Assembly (NCBI GenBank): GCA_965645245.1
Contig: OZ287068.1
Location: 3,162,001-3,226,000, forward strand
Length of the DNA stretch: 64,000 bases
Source of the DNA: Massalongia carnosa
Lineage: Eukaryota
Direction: 5' to 3'
Shown here: one piece after another, positions 37,671-53,917 of the stretch
How the letters are laid out: each line of letters begins with the position of its first letter
How positions within the stretch are numbered: the stretch's first letter is position 1
Notes under the pieces: generated by a model
The model's database searches: none
What the model saw: only the letters and a program-made list of their open reading frames with translations
What the model was told of the DNA's origin: nothing
Made by a program: the position numbers and the translations under genes

Positions 37671-38424
37671 TCCAATTCCTCAATAGTTTTCCGTATGCCA
37701 GAAACCTCCCCCAAACGATCGAGAATTACCATGTACTTTTTTCGCGTCGTCGTCGTCGTCGTGGATGATCATATCCTACCCCATCCCATTCTATTTTCGT
37801 TTGCGCTCAAATTACCTCCTCTCCTGCAAATCTCTAATGGCTTATTACTAATTAGTCAGTTATTTAATTAAGTTGTATAAGTTGCCCGGTAGTTACCCAT
37901 GGACAGATAGATATAGGTAAAGACATATATGGAATTCTTTGAAGGAAAATATGCACGTGATATATTGCTCACCAAGGTGTCACCGCTTTGCTCGCGCGTT
38001 AAGGCCCGTTTCGTTCATCGGCTCCCTGGATGCTCCCTCATGCTTCCTCTGTGCTTCCTCACTGCTCCTCAATGCTCCCTCTCTGCTCTCTTATGCTCCC
38101 TTTCGATCAAGTAGCAGGGCCAGCTTTAATGGAAAACAAGGCAGTCAATTCAGTCTTCCCGTGTGCACTGCCTCATTTGGTATAGAAAGCCAGGGTCTAC
38201 CCTCTGCTTCTTTGAGGAATCACAGAAGCAACAGCTACGTCACTTATTATTTGCCTCGTGCTCTTGTTCGCCCGCTCTTAAGTCTGTTTCGGGCATTAAA
38301 AACCGCGTGTGACCCTTCGCGCTCTGTCATTCACTATATTCAGATCATAATAGCTCTTCAATCATTTCATCATCTTCCGAAAATTCTTTTTGTGTTTGAG
38401 ATAGCAACCCAAAAATCAATTTTA

Positions 38425-40250
38425 ATGAATCAAGATCACAATCAACATCTCTACGACATCTACAGAAAGATTGAATTCGAGCAGTATTTTCAACGCGAGT
38501 TGAATATCCACGTTTACGATTCCGATCTCGTAGAAGCAGACAAAGCAGCCTTGAGACTAGGCAGTTTCAAGGAAATACTCGAAAGAAGCTTCTTGTGCCC
38601 TTTCTGCCGTCTGATAGTGACCGCAATTTGTAGAAGGCGCACAACGTGGGTTTTCGGATTCGAAGATATTATCGCGAGAAATAATGGGAAAAGAACAGAA
38701 ATGAAATGCTGAATAAATATACAATTATTGCTATGCCACTCATAATTCGTTGAAAACCGGATCGAAAACGGCAAATTGCATAGATATCGCAACAAGGGGC
38801 GAGTGAGAGTTATTTCTCTACTACATTCAGCTGTTAGTCGAAGACGCGTCACAGATTGAAAGATCGAAGTTGTGTCATGACAGAATTGTTTATGCGGCAA
38901 AATTAGCATGAAATTAGCTTGAAGTTGATTACATTGCTATCAAAGCGATCATGAGAAGCGTTGTGAAAACCTCGAGTCTACGATGAATGACAATAGCAAG
39001 CAATCACATGACATCAGAGTGATCAATGTCAAGCGCTTATGTATTTGCGACTTGAATCCAGGATCACGATATGTCTGCCTCAGCTATTGTTGATCGACTG
39101 TGAAATCTTTTACGTTGATTAATGAACTCTCTAAGCGGACTGCTTTAAGCAAAATCCTCGAAACGCGGAATATCGGAGCTATCATGTACAATTTAAGACG
39201 CGATTCAATTTGTGTCCGATCTGAGAGCGATCTATCTTTGAATTGACTCTCTTTGCATTATTCAAGATAACAAGGAGAACAAGCACTATCAGATATCTCA
39301 AACGAATAGAATATGCATTTCCGCTTTCCTATCAATATCAGCCTGTTCGATTGGGGGGTATACTACTAATTCATACAGTGATCTTCCCCGCTAACGTGAG
39401 GATACTGAATGAGCACAACAAAATATCGAGAATGTTCGAAATCTTCGGCTTGCAGTTCCATTTGACTCCCTCATTTTCCCTCTTCAGTCACTCAAGTGAT
39501 CGACCCGCGTCTGAAAATATGAGAAGGATCTGTTATTCAGGCGACTCCTCTATTTTACAGAGATTCAACTCTATTTCCAATGTCCTTGCAGTGTCTTCTG
39601 CGAGAACGAGACTAACGAGAGCAATCCTTTCAACGCCCGATTTTATCCTGCAAGCAACCTATGAAATATGAGTGAACCCTACGCCATGGCGAATGGCAAT
39701 GGAAATTTTTATTCTTTTCATCTGAAACGAACGGAGTATCCAGAACTTGAAGAGGCAATTCAAGACTATTAAAATCGTCTATCAGATTATACGACTCGTA
39801 ATATAAGCGATGATTCCGATATTCTTAACGCTTTCAAAGGAATTGCGACTGTCATGAAGCGAAGTATGAAAACTGATTTTTGATATGGCTTGCCGGAATC
39901 TCATTTAGATTCGGCTTTGCTATGAACACTACTTGGCCCTCATAAGCGAAGAGATGTTTTGATTAAGGGGTATACGAAACCTTACTTACCAAGCTGGACA
40001 TGAGCTGAATGAGAAAGCCAAATAGAATTAGGCTCTTACTTCTGCATCATGAGGCTTTGTCATGAGATCGACTGATTCCTTATAAATTCAAAAGGTGCAG
40101 CAATTCTGATGACGGCGAAGAATATCTTTGCAGAACTTAAGTTCACCGAGTGCGATGAAAAAAGGGTTGACCCATCTGATCATCTCTTGGCGTCAAAACA
40201 GCACAGACTTGAGATTAGTGCGTTTTTCAGATGACTTAGCTTGCTGAACG
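38425..40250 (+). pseudogene. HET-domain (heterokaryon incompatibility) protein pseudogene
   Basis: CPFCRLI, IRVINVKRLCI...RYVCLSYC*, YL*IDSLCIIQD, DILNAFKGI, DSALL*, PSWT*AE*: HET motifs with Trp codons turned to TGA plus frameshifts. Confidence 0.88.
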
Positions 40251-40595
40251 ACCTTGACGTCCTTTTATCTATCAGGAGAGGCCGTATCTCAGGAACACTT
40301 GCAAAAGCTTTATTAGCAATGTGCGATGATAGCTCGTTGGGTTTTCAGCAGGAAGAAATTATGTTAACGTAAGCGAAAGCCCTTTTCTTTGGCAAGGGCT
40401 CGTGCATATTTCTCAATCGACAGCTAAGTGGAAAAGACACACGGGCTGGCCTCTTTCGGACGGCACATCAGAACGTCATGTATACGCTCTGAGGCTCTGG
40501 CCTGACGTCCTCGAATGGATCTGATGAATCTTACTTCGACGCATGATAAACGCCGCTCACTGTTGTGGCGCCAATCTTTGCAGCAATCTGAAAAA

Positions 40596-42305
40596 TCACT
40601 TAATTCGAAATCTGACACCATTGGCATACCTCTTCGGCTCAGCAATCAGCATATCGCTATAGATGTCCACATCCTCCCTAGTCGTCTCATACACTTCCAG
40701 AGTGACTCTTGTGCAGATCGAAGCCATCATAATATACAACTCTGCCCAAGCGAGACTGTAGCACCGTTGGTATGAGATCTCCAGGAGCAAGATATGGGGG
40801 GGGGGGGGGGGGAAGGCTGTCCGGCCTTGAACCAGAGTACCTCAAGATCGGAATTCAGGATGAACTTACTTGATGCCAGCACATTGTCTCGAGCCTCTTG
40901 AGAATGGCACCAGATACTTTTCCATGCGCTGCCCCTTGATCGGATCGAGCCAACGCTCGGGAATGAACTCCAACGGCTGCGGGTAGATATCGGGGTTCTG
41001 GTGAATCAGTGTGGACGTCATGCCTACCGGCGTCCCCTTCGGAATCTCCCAGTCACGGAAATAGATACTACGGTCGGGCGCGACACGAGCAAGACGGGTA
41101 GATACGCCGTTACTAAGTCGCAGACTTTCCTTGATCACGGCCGTTAGATACGGGAGCTGTTCGAGCTGCTGTAGATTTGCGGGCTGGTGGGGATCCGACA
41201 TTATTGATCTGATCTCGGCTCGAAGCCTTTCCATTTTCTTCGGCTGCACTGCAAGGTGGTACATGGCCACGGTGAGCGTCCACGCTGTGGTAACTGCTCC
41301 AGCGCCAAGGATGGCCGCTGCCTCTCCTTGTAAACGTTTCGGCGTTTTTTCCGGCGGCGGCAAATCGGAGTGAATTATCTCATAGAAGATGGTCGGGTGC
41401 ATCTTTACCTCGTACTTCTTACCATCGGTCTCGCTCAACATTCTTTCGGCAATCGCGTAGCAGTTTTTGAAGAAATCCAGTAACAACTTCGACCTTGGGT
41501 TCATCCAAAGAACCAACCTGTCAGGCAAGCTGTTCATGATATCAATCAAAGGTGGGAACATCTTCTGCATGTAGCCTAGCTCTCCGAACGCTCGCTCCAA
41601 CTCGCGGAAGTCGCTACTCCACCCGGGATTATTAAGATAGCCGAAGCTCGTGTCAAGAGAATACTCGGTGATGACATCCATGGTGAATGCATCAAAGGCG
41701 CACTCTAGCGGTACCACCTCGTCGGTGCCTCTGCAGTTTTCCAATTTGGTGCAAAGCTTGTCGGCCAACTGTTGTATGATGGGCTGTAGTGCGGCCACTT
41801 TCAGCTTGGAGAAGAAAGGGTTGATGGCCGCTCGCCGCATGCGGTGGAGATCGTGGTCAACGGTGCCGAACCCAGCGACGGTATTCCCGAATGAGTTCAC
41901 GTAGAAGGGGTTCTTCTCCCACTTGCCTTCCCGGTTATAGAGGCTGTCGTAATAGTCCGGATCGTTGATATGGAGCTCAGCAGGGCTGATTCGAATGATC
42001 GGTCCTGGAAAATTGGGGTAAAGCGACATGGCTTTAGCATATGCATTGAGGGGGAAACTTTGGTGGCACTGACCGTATTCAGCATGCAGGTCTCTGATCT
42101 TGAAGGTGTATTTGCCCCTTTTCACGACGTCGTAGTACCCTTCGAATAAGTACGTCGCCGCAGCCAGTTTTGGTCCTGGAAACTTCGCAATCGGGCTCAA
42201 GTATAGCCGGTAAACCACAAGACCGGCGAGGTAGAGGAGGGAGACAATGAGAAAAGCGGTTGCGAGTACGACGCTGCGCCCGCAAAGAGTAATAGTCTCA
42301 AACAT
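40596..42305 (-). CDS. Cytochrome P450 monooxygenase (secondary-metabolism type, TRI4/CYP58-like)
   Basis: PIAKFPGPKLAA, I-helix GAGAVTT, ESLR (ExxR), FIPERW, heme motif FSRGSRQCAG; last exon LAWAELY...RFRIK*. Confidence 0.93.
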
Positions 42306-42685
42306 CACGGCTTTACAGCTGTAGGTAATGCAAATACTTATCGCAAAAGAAGTGTCGATATCGTGCTGTTTAGTTAGAAGCATCAACTGGTTGAGACAAT
42401 GATGGATGGCATCTCGACCAGTTACCCCTCACTCGAGCAAGCACAGGTCTGATAAGAACGGCCGATACTGATGGCGCGATTTTAGGCTCTGTCATATTGC
42501 TCCCCCGTGCTCTCCCATGCCCTCGGTGCTCTTTCGCTGCTCCCTCTAAAGCGGCCCTACTCCCTTTCCCAAACGGAAACGGCAATCCCAAATCCTAAGT
42601 TCGGGATGTATATAATAAATACATATATCTACGAAGTACACAAACACCATTGTTTACGGATAGATTGTAAGTAGCTTAGATAACT

Positions 42686-45994: not shown

Positions 45995-46080
45995 GTAGTG
46001 GAGGAGAGTTTATGATCAAAGCCAATCATAGCTGATGATTTTTCTCTGCTATTTCGATCTTGCACTACATTATCCAATAT

Positions 46081-48246
46081 CCCTCTCGCTGTCATTCTAG
46101 CACCCCCCCCCAAGCTAAACCATTGTTGGTTAGAAAGCGCTAAACCTTAAACTTTTGACCAATCAATGTTATTCCTATTCACAAGAAGTTGTACGGAGTA
46201 TCAGATACCTATTTACTCGTCCCCTATCATATGAATAGCTTCCCAACAGCTGGCTTTCTTACAGCAGGGCCTGATTGGATTACATCCTCCACAAGCCCAT
46301 ATAGTCTGAGCACCCCTTCGCCTTCTTTTACGCCCATCGACACTTATTTCAGCCAGTGGCTCTCCCTTCCGCTTTGAAGGTCGTTTTTTCTCGGCGTTAC
46401 ATTGCACACATCTTTTTCTGCCTTCAAGACGAACGTAATGATGAATGGGAGATGGTACTAAAGCATCAATCGTGGTATTGATGCTTATCTTTGATGAGCC
46501 GGGCCTGATGCCCGCTTGATTTGATATCAGTTCAAGAGCAATCCGACGAAGAAATTCAGAACGAGTAAATTTTATCTCCTCGGAATCGAAAGAGTTCAGC
46601 GAGTAAAGTTTATAGGCATTCAATCCGGCTGCATCTAAAATAAAAATGAACAAAGGCCACCAGTAACGATCCGTTCGACGATTGTATGAGTAAATCGCTC
46701 GTTGCTGAGCGTTTCCATCCGATCCCCGCATATGAAGATTATATTCTTTGATTGGGGCTGGTATCGGTAATCCTAAGGGCCGTTGAACCTCTTGATTGAG
46801 CAAGGGAATGGAGTGAGCCAGAGTTGATGGGAAATACGATACAATAGGTTGAAGAGAGGTCTCGGGAATTCCATATCTCTTGTGCGGATTTATATAGTGC
46901 ATTTCGTACAAGTCCTGAGGAGAATGACCGGTGGTCATGTACTGCACACCATTATTATCCACCCAGCCCATACAAAGCACCTTATCGTCGACCACCATAT
47001 GGGCCTGAAGACCCCAGTCTTTTCCTTTTGAAGTGACGTCCCGTATGGCCAACAATTCTTCTGGAAAGCCCGAGCCCTTTTTAGCAGTTCCACTGGCAGC
47101 TATTCCGATTGATCGAAGTGCCTTGAATAATTTCGTACTAGTAAAGAAATTATCACAGAAAAGATGATAATTCAGTGAGGATGGAAGTTCTTTACATAAC
47201 TGAATCACTAGCAAAGCACTAGGAGTTAGTTTATCTTTTGGCAAAAATCCCAATTGTCTGACTGTTTTCAATTCACTTATTCTGCTACTCTTCGAGGCAA
47301 ACATAAATGACAACAGATAATTATCCTGACAGAGACTGTAGATTTTAAATCCTTTATGGGCACTTTTTGTAGTAATCTGCAAGGTATGTCGAGAACGGCC
47401 CTTGAATAACACCAGCTGTTCATCTATAGATATCATACTTCCTGGTCTGCAATGTTTCAATGAAGTCTTTCGGAAATCAGTAGCCAACGGTTCCAGTTTC
47501 TTCCACCAATCAGGTCCTTGACCAAGTCCGATAGGCTCAGTCTGTCCATTATTGATTTTCAAAAATCGTTTGATTTGTTGAAATCGACCAAGCGACATCG
47601 CGGACAGAATAGGCATGATAACTGGTTTGTCAGGACGTTGATTCCAATAATCCTCTGTAGCAGGTAGATGATCGAGTCCCATAAGAATTAATATGCCCAA
47701 AAAAACCTCAATTTCCGAGTCAGTAGTGTCAGTCCAAACCCGATGATTGTTCTCCTTCTCCTTTTCCATGTAGTTATTTGCCTTGATATTGGTATGATTT
47801 GCGATGATACGACAATGCTGCCTTGTTATAAATAACCGAAATAATCCCAAAGGATTTCGAGAATCGTTTTCAACGAGCGGAACAAAAGGCCTGTTTTCAA
47901 CCCGAATGGGGGTATATTTTGAGGAAATAGGGGGAAGGTCGATTAAAATATCCCGAACACTTCTTTTGCGATTTATTTTATGTTGCTTCGCTGAAATGGG
48001 AGATTTGTCTGATACACTCGGGATTTCTTCTTCATTGAGCGTCATAATTATAATATCAATTCCGAAGCTAGAAGAATAGTAATTTATGTGATTTATTTTG
48101 ATTGAATGACCGAATAGTATTCTTTGAAAAGTAAACAAACGCGCAAACACTATAGAGAAAACTAATGTTCTGATGACTCATCGGTGCGGAAGCTAGTCCA
48201 ATATAGATTAGCTTGGGAGGGGGGTGCTAGAATGACAGCGAGAGGG
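46081..48246 (-). mobile_element. piggyBac-like DNA transposon inserted in Tc1-A
   Basis: Perfect TIR CCCTCTCGCTGTCATTCTAGCACCCCC at both ends; single long ORF. Confidence 0.93.
46213..48045 (-). CDS. piggyBac-like transposase (DDE_Tnp_1_7), uninterrupted
   Basis: SIDEQ, FCDNFFTS, YNLHMRGSD catalytic region; WWPLFIFILD; C-terminal Cys-rich domain CVQC...CGGC...CC...CWEAIH. Confidence 0.92.
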   Translation of the reverse strand: MTLNEEEIPSVSDKSPISAKQHKINRKRSVRDILIDLPPISSKYTPIRVENRPFVPLVENDSRNPLGLFRLFITRQHCRIIANHTNIKANNYMEKEKENNHRVWTDTTDSEIEVFLGILILMGLDHLPATEDYWNQRPDKPVIMPILSAMSLGRFQQIKRFLKINNGQTEPIGLGQGPDWWKKLEPLATDFRKTSLKHCRPGSMISIDEQLVLFKGRSRHTLQITTKSAHKGFKIYSLCQDNYLLSFMFASKSSRISELKTVRQLGFLPKDKLTPSALLVIQLCKELPSSLNYHLFCDNFFTSTKLFKALRSIGIAASGTAKKGSGFPEELLAIRDVTSKGKDWGLQAHMVVDDKVLCMGWVDNNGVQYMTTGHSPQDLYEMHYINPHKRYGIPETSLQPIVSYFPSTLAHSIPLLNQEVQRPLGLPIPAPIKEYNLHMRGSDGNAQQRAIYSYNRRTDRYWWPLFIFILDAAGLNAYKLYSLNSFDSEEIKFTRSEFLRRIALELISNQAGIRPGSSKISINTTIDALVPSPIHHYVRLEGRKRCVQCNAEKKRPSKRKGEPLAEISVDGRKRRRRGAQTIWACGGCNPIRPCCKKASCWEAIHMIGDE

Positions 48247-48298
48247 ATAGCTTGCTCTACCTCCGGTGTAACCTTTTTGGGTCGTCCTGAACGAGGTG

Positions 48299-50936: not shown

Positions 50937-53917
50937 ATGAGTAGTAGTTCTGCAGGGTATATGGACAATATCGCCCGTGACCAAGCTCCATACCACGATT
51001 TTCTCTCCTCGACCCATTCAGTCGACTGCAAAAAGCCTGCCTGTCCCCGTTTTGCGCCGCGAGCGACTTGCTGATCAACGAGCGTTCTACATACCACGGA
51101 TACCCTCTTTGGCGGCCGCACGATGGACCCGGGCCCCTCCGCTGCAGGCCCGCTGTCGCAGATCCGGAGACGGCGGCGCCTCTTTCTTGGCCTCCTCCTG
51201 AGGCTTACGTTGATGTCGACGCCGTCAAGCGTGAGTCTCAGGCCTATGCCACCCACGGCAACAACGAGGCCGCCATGGCCGCCACCATAAGGCGCGTCTG
51301 CGGGATGCGGGAGGAGGATCGGAGGGCCAACACCCTTAAGACGTACCGCAAGTGCTGGCATCTGTGGGAGGTGACTACGATAGGTATGCCCTGCAACTTT
51401 GGGCCTACGCTAACATCCTACAGAAGTGGTGCCGACGTCGCAATTTCCTTGACGGCGTCCTTGTGTGGGAGCGGAAGATGCTCCTCTTCCTCGAAGAGGT
51501 CGTCCTCCGCCTGCGCTTCGTCCCACGTCCCAAGCTCACAGGCGCAGCAGCGCAGGCCAGGCGGCGGGATCAGAATCGCCAACGGCAGGCTAAGCGCCGC
51601 GCGTTGAAGAGGGGGAAGGGGAAGGCGATGGAGGCGGTGGAAGCCTCGCCAGCGGTAGAGGGAGAGGAGGTGGAGGAGGTGGAAAAATTCGAGGAATTCT
51701 CCGACGGCGAGGAGCTCGTTGAGACGGTGAGTCGGCCCCTGAATTCGAATTCATGGATAGAATCATCTTTTTGTAGCTTACTGGCTCGTCTTGCAGCAAG
51801 CCGACGACCCTTTATCCCGGCCCCTGGCGCCCGATAGCGTGGAATCGAGCTACGTCTCTGCCCTCTGCGCCCTCTTCGATGACCAGCATCTCGAAGAGAG
51901 TTTGGTGGTGCCCCATCCCAGAGGGAAGGCCACCAATGCCCTGATGACGCGCTTACGCATCGATTGGAGCGCTTTCAAGCGGGCCTCGTTCGAGGATCGC
52001 GCGATCCACGGCCTCACCGACGGCTACACGACTGAGCAGGCCGCTCAATTGTCGGCAATGCTGCTCGCCGGGGGCAAGGTTTTGGGAGAGGAGGGCGTGG
52101 CGGGCGGCGAGTGGCACCTCCTGCGGACTCGCCTCGACTTCCTCCTAATGCATTCGATGATGCTGCGGGAGGGAGTCAACGCGGAAGGCTGAGCTACCTG
52201 ACCTCTGCGCCTACGACCTCCCTAACGAGGGGTCCGAATGCCTTGCGTTGATCCTTCGAATTGGCCAGGGCAAGAGCATTCCTCTGGCGGACGGGGGCAA
52301 CTCGCGCCGCCAGCATTACCATGGTGCTTTGCGGAGCAGAGATGTCGTCCTTTGTCCTCTCGGCGCCCTCGCCCACTGGCTCGTCTTGCGCTGGGACCTC
52401 CTCCTGGAGAAGCGGCCGGACTTCCGGGATCGATCTTCGTGGTATTTCACGAAGGTCATCTCCGGGAGCCTGGCGCGATCTAAGGAGGAGATCTCCGACA
52501 AAACACAGGCCCGATGGATCAAGCCGGCTTTGGATGCTGTCGGCGTCGACAGCTCCAAGACGGTCCACACCATGCGGCAGTCCTCGTCACGGCTGGCCGA
52601 CATGTGGGAGGTCCCCGCGGACCAAGTAAGTACTCTACGATTCATGGCCCCTTATACTTACTAGCATTACCCTTATATCAACTACTACAGATCATGAGAG
52701 CAGGCGGATGGGAACGTGGCGTCTGGGCCACTAACTACCTCACTCGCCTGCCGCGTGTCTACATGCGTCGCGCCGCCGGCTTTGGCAACTCCCCCGGGAG
52801 TTACTTTTTGAGAAGAGGAGGACACTCACCGGATCTAGCCCTGCAGCGGCAGGTGTGGCCTTGGGTGGATGACGCTCTGGCGGCGTACAAAGGCGGTCTT
52901 TTTCCTGATGCGGATAAGGCAGGGAAGAAGGTTCTGGAGATGTTGCTGCGGCTGCGTTGTGTCTTCCTGCAAGACACGGCGCTTCTACAGCCTCAGTTTC
53001 CTGAGCTTTCGCTCTGGAGACACCAAGTCTTCAGAGATCCCCTTTGGCCTGCGTTCGCGGCGAAGATACGGGAGTTGGAGGCTGTAGAAAAGGAACCTTT
53101 GCACGTGGCCATCCACGGCGTGCTGCCTCTTGTTGCTGACTCCGTTGATGGCGTCAGTAACAAGGTCAGCGGTGTTGCAATCAAGCAAGATCGCACGCTC
53201 AACGCTGTGGAGAGGTTGCTCTCCGGGCAGCGCCAGCTGACGACCATCTTGAGTGCGCTGCCGGCGGCAAATGCCCAGGAGATAGCTCGGGTCCTGGGTT
53301 CGCAGCTTTCACAATTGCAGGCCACGGTCTCGACGCTGCCTCGATCCTTTCTGACGGTTCCTGTGGAGGCTGTTCGGAGGGACTGGCTGCTGGACGAGGC
53401 TTCTTGGCGAGGGCAGGCGACTGCTCTTGCGACGGCGGCGCACTCCGTTGGTGAAGAGCCTGCTGCGTCGGCGTCCTCGTACGTCGACGCAGTCGCTTCT
53501 CTCCTTCCTACACCTTCTGTCGTCCTCACTTCCGTCCCCGGAGAGACGTCTACGGTCTCTGCGCCCTGTGGCTCCCTCCCCCAAGAGGGGCCGCCTCAAC
53601 GTCCTCCTGGCTGCCCGGCGGAGCCCATTCTCGGCGGCGTGACCTCGGCGGAGGCGGTGTTGGAGGAATTCGCGGTGGGGACGTTGGTGGAGGGGGTCCA
53701 GCGTGCATCTCTCGACGAGTTGGACCGCCTCTTTGGGGCTAAGTGGAGGTACACTCCTGCCCTGAGGCAGCGGTTCTACGTCAAGAGACGGATCTGTCAG
53801 TACCTTCAGGGGAAGGCGAATGAGCAAGGGAGGGATCCGTGGGATATTGTGCGGGAAGTTGACAGTTTGGGGCTCTCTGGACATCAGATCTCTAAGCGTA
53901 TTGACGAGAAAAGCTAA
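50937..53917 (+). mobile_element. CryptonF tyrosine-recombinase transposon gene (NDC10-II/YR plus GCR1_C-like domain), frameshifted
   Basis: Introns 51371-51423, 51727-51796, 52626-52690; LR(G)ESTR, HTMR, RAGGW, NYLTRLPR..MRRAAGF; C-terminal LDELDRLFGAKWR...KRRI; extra base near 52168. Confidence 0.88.

Follow-up and report, generated by a model that had tools for sequence, protein, structure and literature searches.

In the genome of Massalongia carnosa, C>T changes on both strands in the CpC context mark a decayed HET-domain gene as well as copies of several repeats, with sharp edges to the affected tracts and with sister copies left untouched. We consider it likely that a RIP variant that preferred CpC acted on duplicated DNA in the past, and the genome offers a candidate for the enzyme. 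The decayed gene lies in the window, by which we mean the whole stretch of 64,000 nucleotides that was analysed (C2:3162001-3226000 of a 52.16-Mb genome in 25 contigs). The following features are referred to below:

38425..40290, plus strand: HET-domain pseudogene from a family of HET proteins of about 760 aa, recognised by its PF06985 match, homologue identity and alignment.
38926..40247, plus strand: twelve invariant Trp positions that read TGA (38926, 39091, 39239, 39497, 39512, 39662, 39881, 39923, 40001, 40010, 40073 and 40245), from the homologue alignment.
38200..40450, no strand: CpC/GpG-depleted tract, from a 200-nt map and a 1-kb scan, with edges approximate to about 200 nt.
37932..38100, plus strand: relic of the terminus of a dispersed mobile element, abutting TA runs and matched at five other places in the genome (70-77%).
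40866..42428, minus strand: main exon of a cytochrome P450 gene, open over 520 codons without a stop and not CpC-depleted, which serves as the right-hand control.

The relic opens with an ATG at position 38425 and matches PF06985 with an E value of 1.6e-8 (35.5 bits, against a Pfam cut-off of 22.5). Six intact homologues (P0001-P0006), to which it is 39-58% identical, served to read it in an alignment that allows for frameshifts; identity to P0001-P0004 is 54-58%, the closest intact relatives are 756-795 aa long, and one of the protein clusters contains an Umbilicaria vellea record. In its domain match and in this identity to intact proteins it resembles fungal HET-domain proteins, but the locus is a non-functional relic, and the incompatibility role of the subfamily is putative. 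The aligned frame contains 20 stops, of which 15 are TGA, five TAA and none TAG. To these come lesions beyond the first reading of the gene, namely at least four frameshifts (near 38710, 38906, 39127 and 40223) and the loss of the last ~117 codons, the 3′ end lying at ~40290. The initial annotation had the gene killed by the mutation pattern; the stops are indeed present, but CpC mutation, frameshifts and 3′ truncation cannot be ordered relative to each other. Assembly errors do not explain the stops, because 0.99-1.00 of the words of the relic are present in three sequencing runs of the same organism (one of them perhaps the source sample) and a contig from an independent study (X4) spans 38615-40812 with one change at the HET stop codons among the 38 of its 47 changes that were listed.

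Fourteen alignment columns have Trp in all six homologues. Twelve of them read TGA in the relic, a single TGG survives (39995), one column beside a frameshift is ambiguous (TGA at 38710 or TAA at 38714), and TAG does not occur (binomial P for TGA versus TAG of 2.4e-4 at 13:0 and 4.9e-4 at 12:0). The seven Trp codons that had first been picked out from the sequence (38710, 39091, 39239, 39881, 39923, 40001 and 40010) all read TGA, and the motif PSWxWAGW was correctly given as PSWT*AE*, the Glu at 40007 facing Gly in six of six homologues.

The context of the changes was counted in 280 codon columns in which at least five of the six homologues agree; 206 match the relic and 61 differ by a single unambiguous base change, with 13 ambiguous columns and the codons next to frameshifts left out. 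C>T or G>A accounts for 47 of the 61 changes, the C:G>T:A excess that is a feature of RIP. Taking retained non-synonymous C/G sites as opportunities, and with ancestral states drawn from proteins only 39-58% identical, C>T had occurred at 35 of 64 CpC sites versus 12 of 155 other CpN sites (CpA 4/61, CpG 3/41, CpT 5/53; Fisher P = 2e-13). CpC changes amount to 8/22 and 27/42 on the two strands, each significant by itself, CCA is changed at 23 of 30 sites, and the outcome is the same at homologue-agreement thresholds of 4/6 and 6/6. The changes are thus neither context-independent nor dominated by CpA, and TAG, far from being as frequent as TGA, is absent, all of which bears out the RIP-like process with a CpC>TpC preference that had been proposed.

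The region had also been described as GG-poor, and over 38425-40290 observed/expected ratios are 0.65 for GG and 0.71 for CC, while the count of CCA+TGG (20) versus TCA+TGA (111) makes the HET region the lowest stretch of the window. Depletion extends ~225 nt upstream of the HET ATG and spares the P450 gene. A poly-G run in the last intron of the latter (40797-40812) varies in length among related contigs. To the right of the two genes lies a transposon nest (42400-64000) with Tc1/mariner relics, an intact piggyBac element (46078-48249, 34-nt TIRs, a 654-codon ORF), a LINE whose ORF2 runs over 1127 codons and a Crypton-like ORF (52484-53917, NDC10_II/GCR1_C). As had been claimed, the P450 main exon, the piggyBac ORF and the LINE ORF2 are free of stops. 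Leakage from the nest into the HET gene was rejected, since the intervening P450 has a normal CC/TC ratio and the elements of the nest are not CpC-biased. Nor are HET genes as such targeted, because the 29 other HET loci extracted from 37 matches are normal, with (CC+GG)/(TC+GA) at 0.58-0.93 compared to 0.33 in the relic. The view that the process acted on a non-self-recognition gene therefore holds in that this gene was hit, but not in the sense of an aim, retrotransposons making up most of the victims found.

The same preference can be read directly from repeat copies, for the low-CC flanks, followed outward, led to a LINE family of which 29 loci were compared with a GC-rich reference copy, L122. 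Four loci, which lie together on C21 (1.19-1.26 Mb), have lost 81-87% of CpC, 33-39% of CpT, 10-12% of CpA and 6-9% of CpG, while CpC loss in the other 25 is at most 2%. In one of the four, L120, changes relative to L122 affect 410/504 CpC, 162/493 CpT, 66/629 CpA and 34/495 CpG sites, with 672 C>T against 75 T>C and 131 transversions; its CpC changes number 176/222 and 235/284 by strand. Trinucleotide rates in the mutated copies are 0.95-0.96 for CCA, 0.94-0.98 for CCG, 0.78-0.80 for CCT, 0.48-0.63 for CCC and 0.61-0.66 for CTA, with every CAN and CGN at or below 0.15, and CpG is over-represented in CpC-mutated tracts. Out of 25 Trp codons of a mutated copy, 19 have become TGA, two TAA and none TAG. 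The four loci represent two largely independent events: L121, tried as a separate event, has its mutations in common with L120 (134 CpT changes in both, four and two private), is a later duplicate of it and is counted together with it as one, and L139 and L148 belong together as pieces of a single copy that is largely independent.

Further families show the signature as well, gypsy copies doing so on two contigs. A gypsy copy compared with L114 is changed at 202/243 CpC, 147/308 CpT, 65/355 CpA and 36/224 CpG sites, and a second gypsy family in the C21 nest (64% identity) has the same context order with CpC at 86/130. On C1, a gag relic of 888 nt retains one CC/GG where 49 are expected, and an element copy beside it is changed at 42/178 CpC sites in one direction and 10/148 in the other. 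Altogether, on two contigs besides the one with the HET relic, at least four repeat families have copies that bear the signature; among the best candidates, heavily mutated copies of three families occur only in a single C21 nest. CpC tracts stop abruptly where an element ends, and the nest contains insertions that are unmutated. This nest (C21:1150000-1295000, loci L100, L101 and L156-L167) covers ~145 kb, is possibly centromeric, and the long ORFs seen in it look transposon-derived; old, CpC-saturated layers are broken by unmutated insertions and a tandem repeat of 20% GC. On C1, two head-to-head element copies (L151/L152, C1:926776-930108) are 83% identical over 1.6 kb and have one TA run in common, and the right copy alone is CpC-mutated, increasingly so away from the terminus.

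Most repeats are unaffected. The LINE in the window has 16 full-length copies at 100% identity, all unmutated, which points to a very recent burst. A Tc1 family of 29 copies was rejected as a RIP victim for its flat spectrum (CpA 0.24, CpG 0.20, CpC 0.14, CpT 0.11), and an old Tc1 pair within the window is likewise without CpC bias. An AT-rich, multicopy LINE family (L104, L109-L113; GC ~0.34, low CC and CT, high CG) was also discarded as a CpC victim, since its long frames are open and Trp is kept; its low CC/CT is intrinsic composition, is not counted as mutation, and would leave CpC/CpT mutation little to act on. As to the present day, the X4 contig differs from the window by 47 changes, of which 38 were listed. 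Thirty-three of the listed differences fall on CC (4), CT (7), CA (7), CG (4) and transversions (11), where the relic has 104 CC, 238 CT, 237 CA and 178 CG sites remaining. With so flat a context, the CpC process is read as not ongoing. It appears to be a past episode that is now over, since younger repeats are untouched, the differences to X4 are context-flat, and the mutated LINE copies, which bear more transversions (~3%) than the others, are the oldest.

How does this compare to known RIP systems? In Neurospora the order of preference is CpA > CpT > CpG > CpC (PMC10170752). The process described here has in common with RID- and DIM-2-dependent RIP of N. crassa that it produces only C>T, on both strands, in repeats and with sharp borders, in a genome that also has RID and DIM-2 genes, but its order is CpC > CpT > CpA > CpG. 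CpC-mutated tracts have TpA/ApT of 0.52-0.59 and (CpA+TpG)/(ApC+GpT) of 1.33-1.47, with CpA changed at 7-12%, and so fail both of the usual cut-offs (≥0.89 and ≤1.03; PMC2621366, PMC3897900). Canonical RIP was not seen in any of 944 1-kb tiles under a strict filter, the tiles covering a non-random, partly overlapping 1 Mb. The CpT-type RIP of Magnaporthe, Botrytis and Sclerotinia likewise favours a pyrimidine neighbour, and CpT is the second target here, but there it accompanies CpA, which here is close to background, CpC being dominant. The CpG/TpCpG transitions of Pucciniomycotina and Tuber, which arise by methylation and then deamination, are also repeat-associated, non-CpA C>T changes, yet here no context is less affected than CpG. 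CpA, CpT and CpG signatures have been described in ten fungi, with a proposal of RID specialisation, and the text of that report contains no occurrence of CpC (PMC4352252). Elsewhere, Sclerotinia is given CpA together with CpT (PMC5381539), sooty-blotch fungi CpA (PMC5737583), and Monilinia CpA along with CpC double mutations (PMC8959702). For lichens, canonical indices were applied to Endocarpon (PMC3897900) and strong RIP is stated for Cladonia with no context in the part of the text available (PMC12542154); a survey of 1,239 genomes gives CpA preference as common to RIP-like defences and scores its three Lecanoromycetes as no_rip (PMC12543289). No CpC-dominant RIP was found in the portion of the literature searched, outside of which stand Clutterbuck 2011 (49 ascomycetes) and table S13 of PMC12543289. 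Within this scope, CpC is a target not reported as preferred by a known fungal anti-repeat mutation system. Judged by its traces in the sequence, the process would work like RIP without being canonical CpA-type RIP, and its rid-dependence is putative.

The variant that we favour would have taken the 5′ cytosine of CpC as its preferred target (CCA and CCG at ~95%, CCT at ~80%), followed by CpT far above CpA and CpG. At that time the HET gene would have been present in duplicate, most probably travelling as cargo next to the end of a Starship-type element, and would have been recognised as a repeat before meiosis; its partner would since have been lost or segregated away. A second copy of the gene, which the initial annotation had proposed to look for, was not found in the genome either by DNA search or by protein search with intact P0001 (both lower bounds), and the nearest HET paralogue is 29-31% identical; we therefore infer that repetition triggered the mutation of this gene. 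The lack of a partner copy would also be explained if DIM-2 or another methyltransferase marked CpC in silenced domains independently of pairing, single-copy sequence included, and 5mC then deaminated. DIM-2 is present in the genome, the mutated tracts cluster in one transposon nest, and the C1 element is more mutated nearer the saturated gag relic. Nevertheless, a CpC loss of 81-87% in copies with only ~3% transversions speaks for a burst and not for slow decay, the tracts end at element borders with unmutated insertions in between, and changes in the HET relic after its split from the X4 allele are context-flat, so that we hold such heterochromatin-linked decay to be rather improbable.

The question of mobile cargo arises because an element terminus lies directly upstream of the HET gene. 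We infer that 37932-38100 is the end of an element that carried the gene, which suggests that the latter was mobile cargo. The copy of this terminus on C5 adjoins a broken DUF3435 gene (Starship captain-type), and a PF11917 search found ~20 DUF3435 loci on many contigs, several of them near-identical pairs or trios. HET domains are known as Starship cargo (10.1101/2021.12.13.472469) and Starships as RIP-sensitive (PMC11162782), in both of which respects the relic resembles RIP-derelict cargo; here, however, there is a single terminus relic, with no far end found near the window and none of 60 scored PF11917 candidates placing a captain near C2:3.2 Mb. A PIF/Harbinger TIR at 38003 and a right-hand element arm at 40440 were rejected as within chance, as is a 13-mer at 40440, the putative far boundary. 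A duplication of the HET gene as Starship cargo is plausible, its membership being unproven. Two further copies of the terminus stand beside an ankyrin-repeat gene (L155:1-1017) and beside an ORF (L153:3-581), hinting at immune-type cargo, and a gene inside the C1 termini has no Pfam match. It might also be thought that the tracts, the HET relic included, had been mutated in another fungus and came by introgression or Starship transfer into a lineage that never had CpC mutation. The terminus, the DUF3435 loci, the patchy distribution of mutated tracts and, weakly, a contig of organism C that departs from the window sequence at 40476 would fit. We regard this as very unlikely, since the families with mutated copies are resident and multicopy and those copies lie on three contigs, for which one import is insufficient, and since it would only shift the CpC process to another fungus.

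Still less probable is a cytidine deaminase (APOBEC-like) working on single-stranded DNA or retro-intermediates, despite the likeness of the CC motif and of the C>T-only bursts to deaminase hypermutation. APOBEC3G hits the 3′ C of CC on one strand, whereas here the 5′ C is mutated equally on both, and the victims include a non-retro gene with its upstream flank. Also already refuted are the readings that the gene decayed neutrally, that TGA codes for Trp, or that A-to-I editing restores TGG. Recoding would account for TGA in the Trp columns taken by themselves, but the same context marks the changes Gly>Glu/Asp/Arg and Pro>Ser/Leu, the relic has frameshifts, TAA stops and a truncation, neighbouring genes use TGG, and neutral decay predicts TAG as often as TGA.

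Returning to the CpC-preferring RIP variant, its enzyme would be a RID-family cytosine methyltransferase, acting via methylation or enzyme-catalysed deamination, as is assumed for canonical RIP. RID-family genes, which the initial annotation had advised looking for, are present: besides a DIM-2-like and a DNMT5-like gene, labels that rest on ORF size and motifs, the genome has two. The first is long (L096), with EQT in motif VI; the second is short:

C17:565027-568515: L095, a short gene of the RID family that falls in a separate clade, with EET in motif VI.

Both have the catalytic PPC, the motif VI criterion being that of PMC6709928, are 37% identical over the catalytic half and read CITTSGG (long) and LIATNGG (short) in the TRD. 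In a tree of 68 rows, including 66 of 120 listed hits (picked by name, by rank or as every third id), the long protein groups with Alectoria and Xylographa proteins (support 98/96) and the short one belongs to a clade of 22 rows, where it joins a Heterodermia protein (100/96). The presence of two genes is not new in itself, since genomes with one RID copy and with two had already been noted (PMC4352252). An N-terminal search with L095 gave no match, and a TGA upstream in L095 was dismissed as a lesion, the homologues starting downstream of it. In L095 alone the Asp of motif I is replaced by Val, while the other 62 of 63 rows covering the motif have Asp; the substitution presumably weakens SAM binding. 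We would put forward only tentatively, as an unlikely idea, that lichen fungi carry in the second, short clade a CpC-specific RIP enzyme, and that its decay in this lineage disabled the defence and allowed the recent transposon burst. Were this true, the two genes would be a natural RID paralogue pair for mapping the determinant of RIP dinucleotide specificity.

If the activity has stopped or become rare, younger transposons would accumulate unmutated, as may be the case here. RIP serves as evidence of sex and genome defence in lichens, and since the CpC form leaves TpA/ApT low, standard indices would score such genomes as RIP-free. Conversion of TGG to TGA is a simple diagnostic with which other genomes can be scanned, and with so extreme and clean an alternative context alongside two RID paralogues, the determinant of RIP target context becomes testable.
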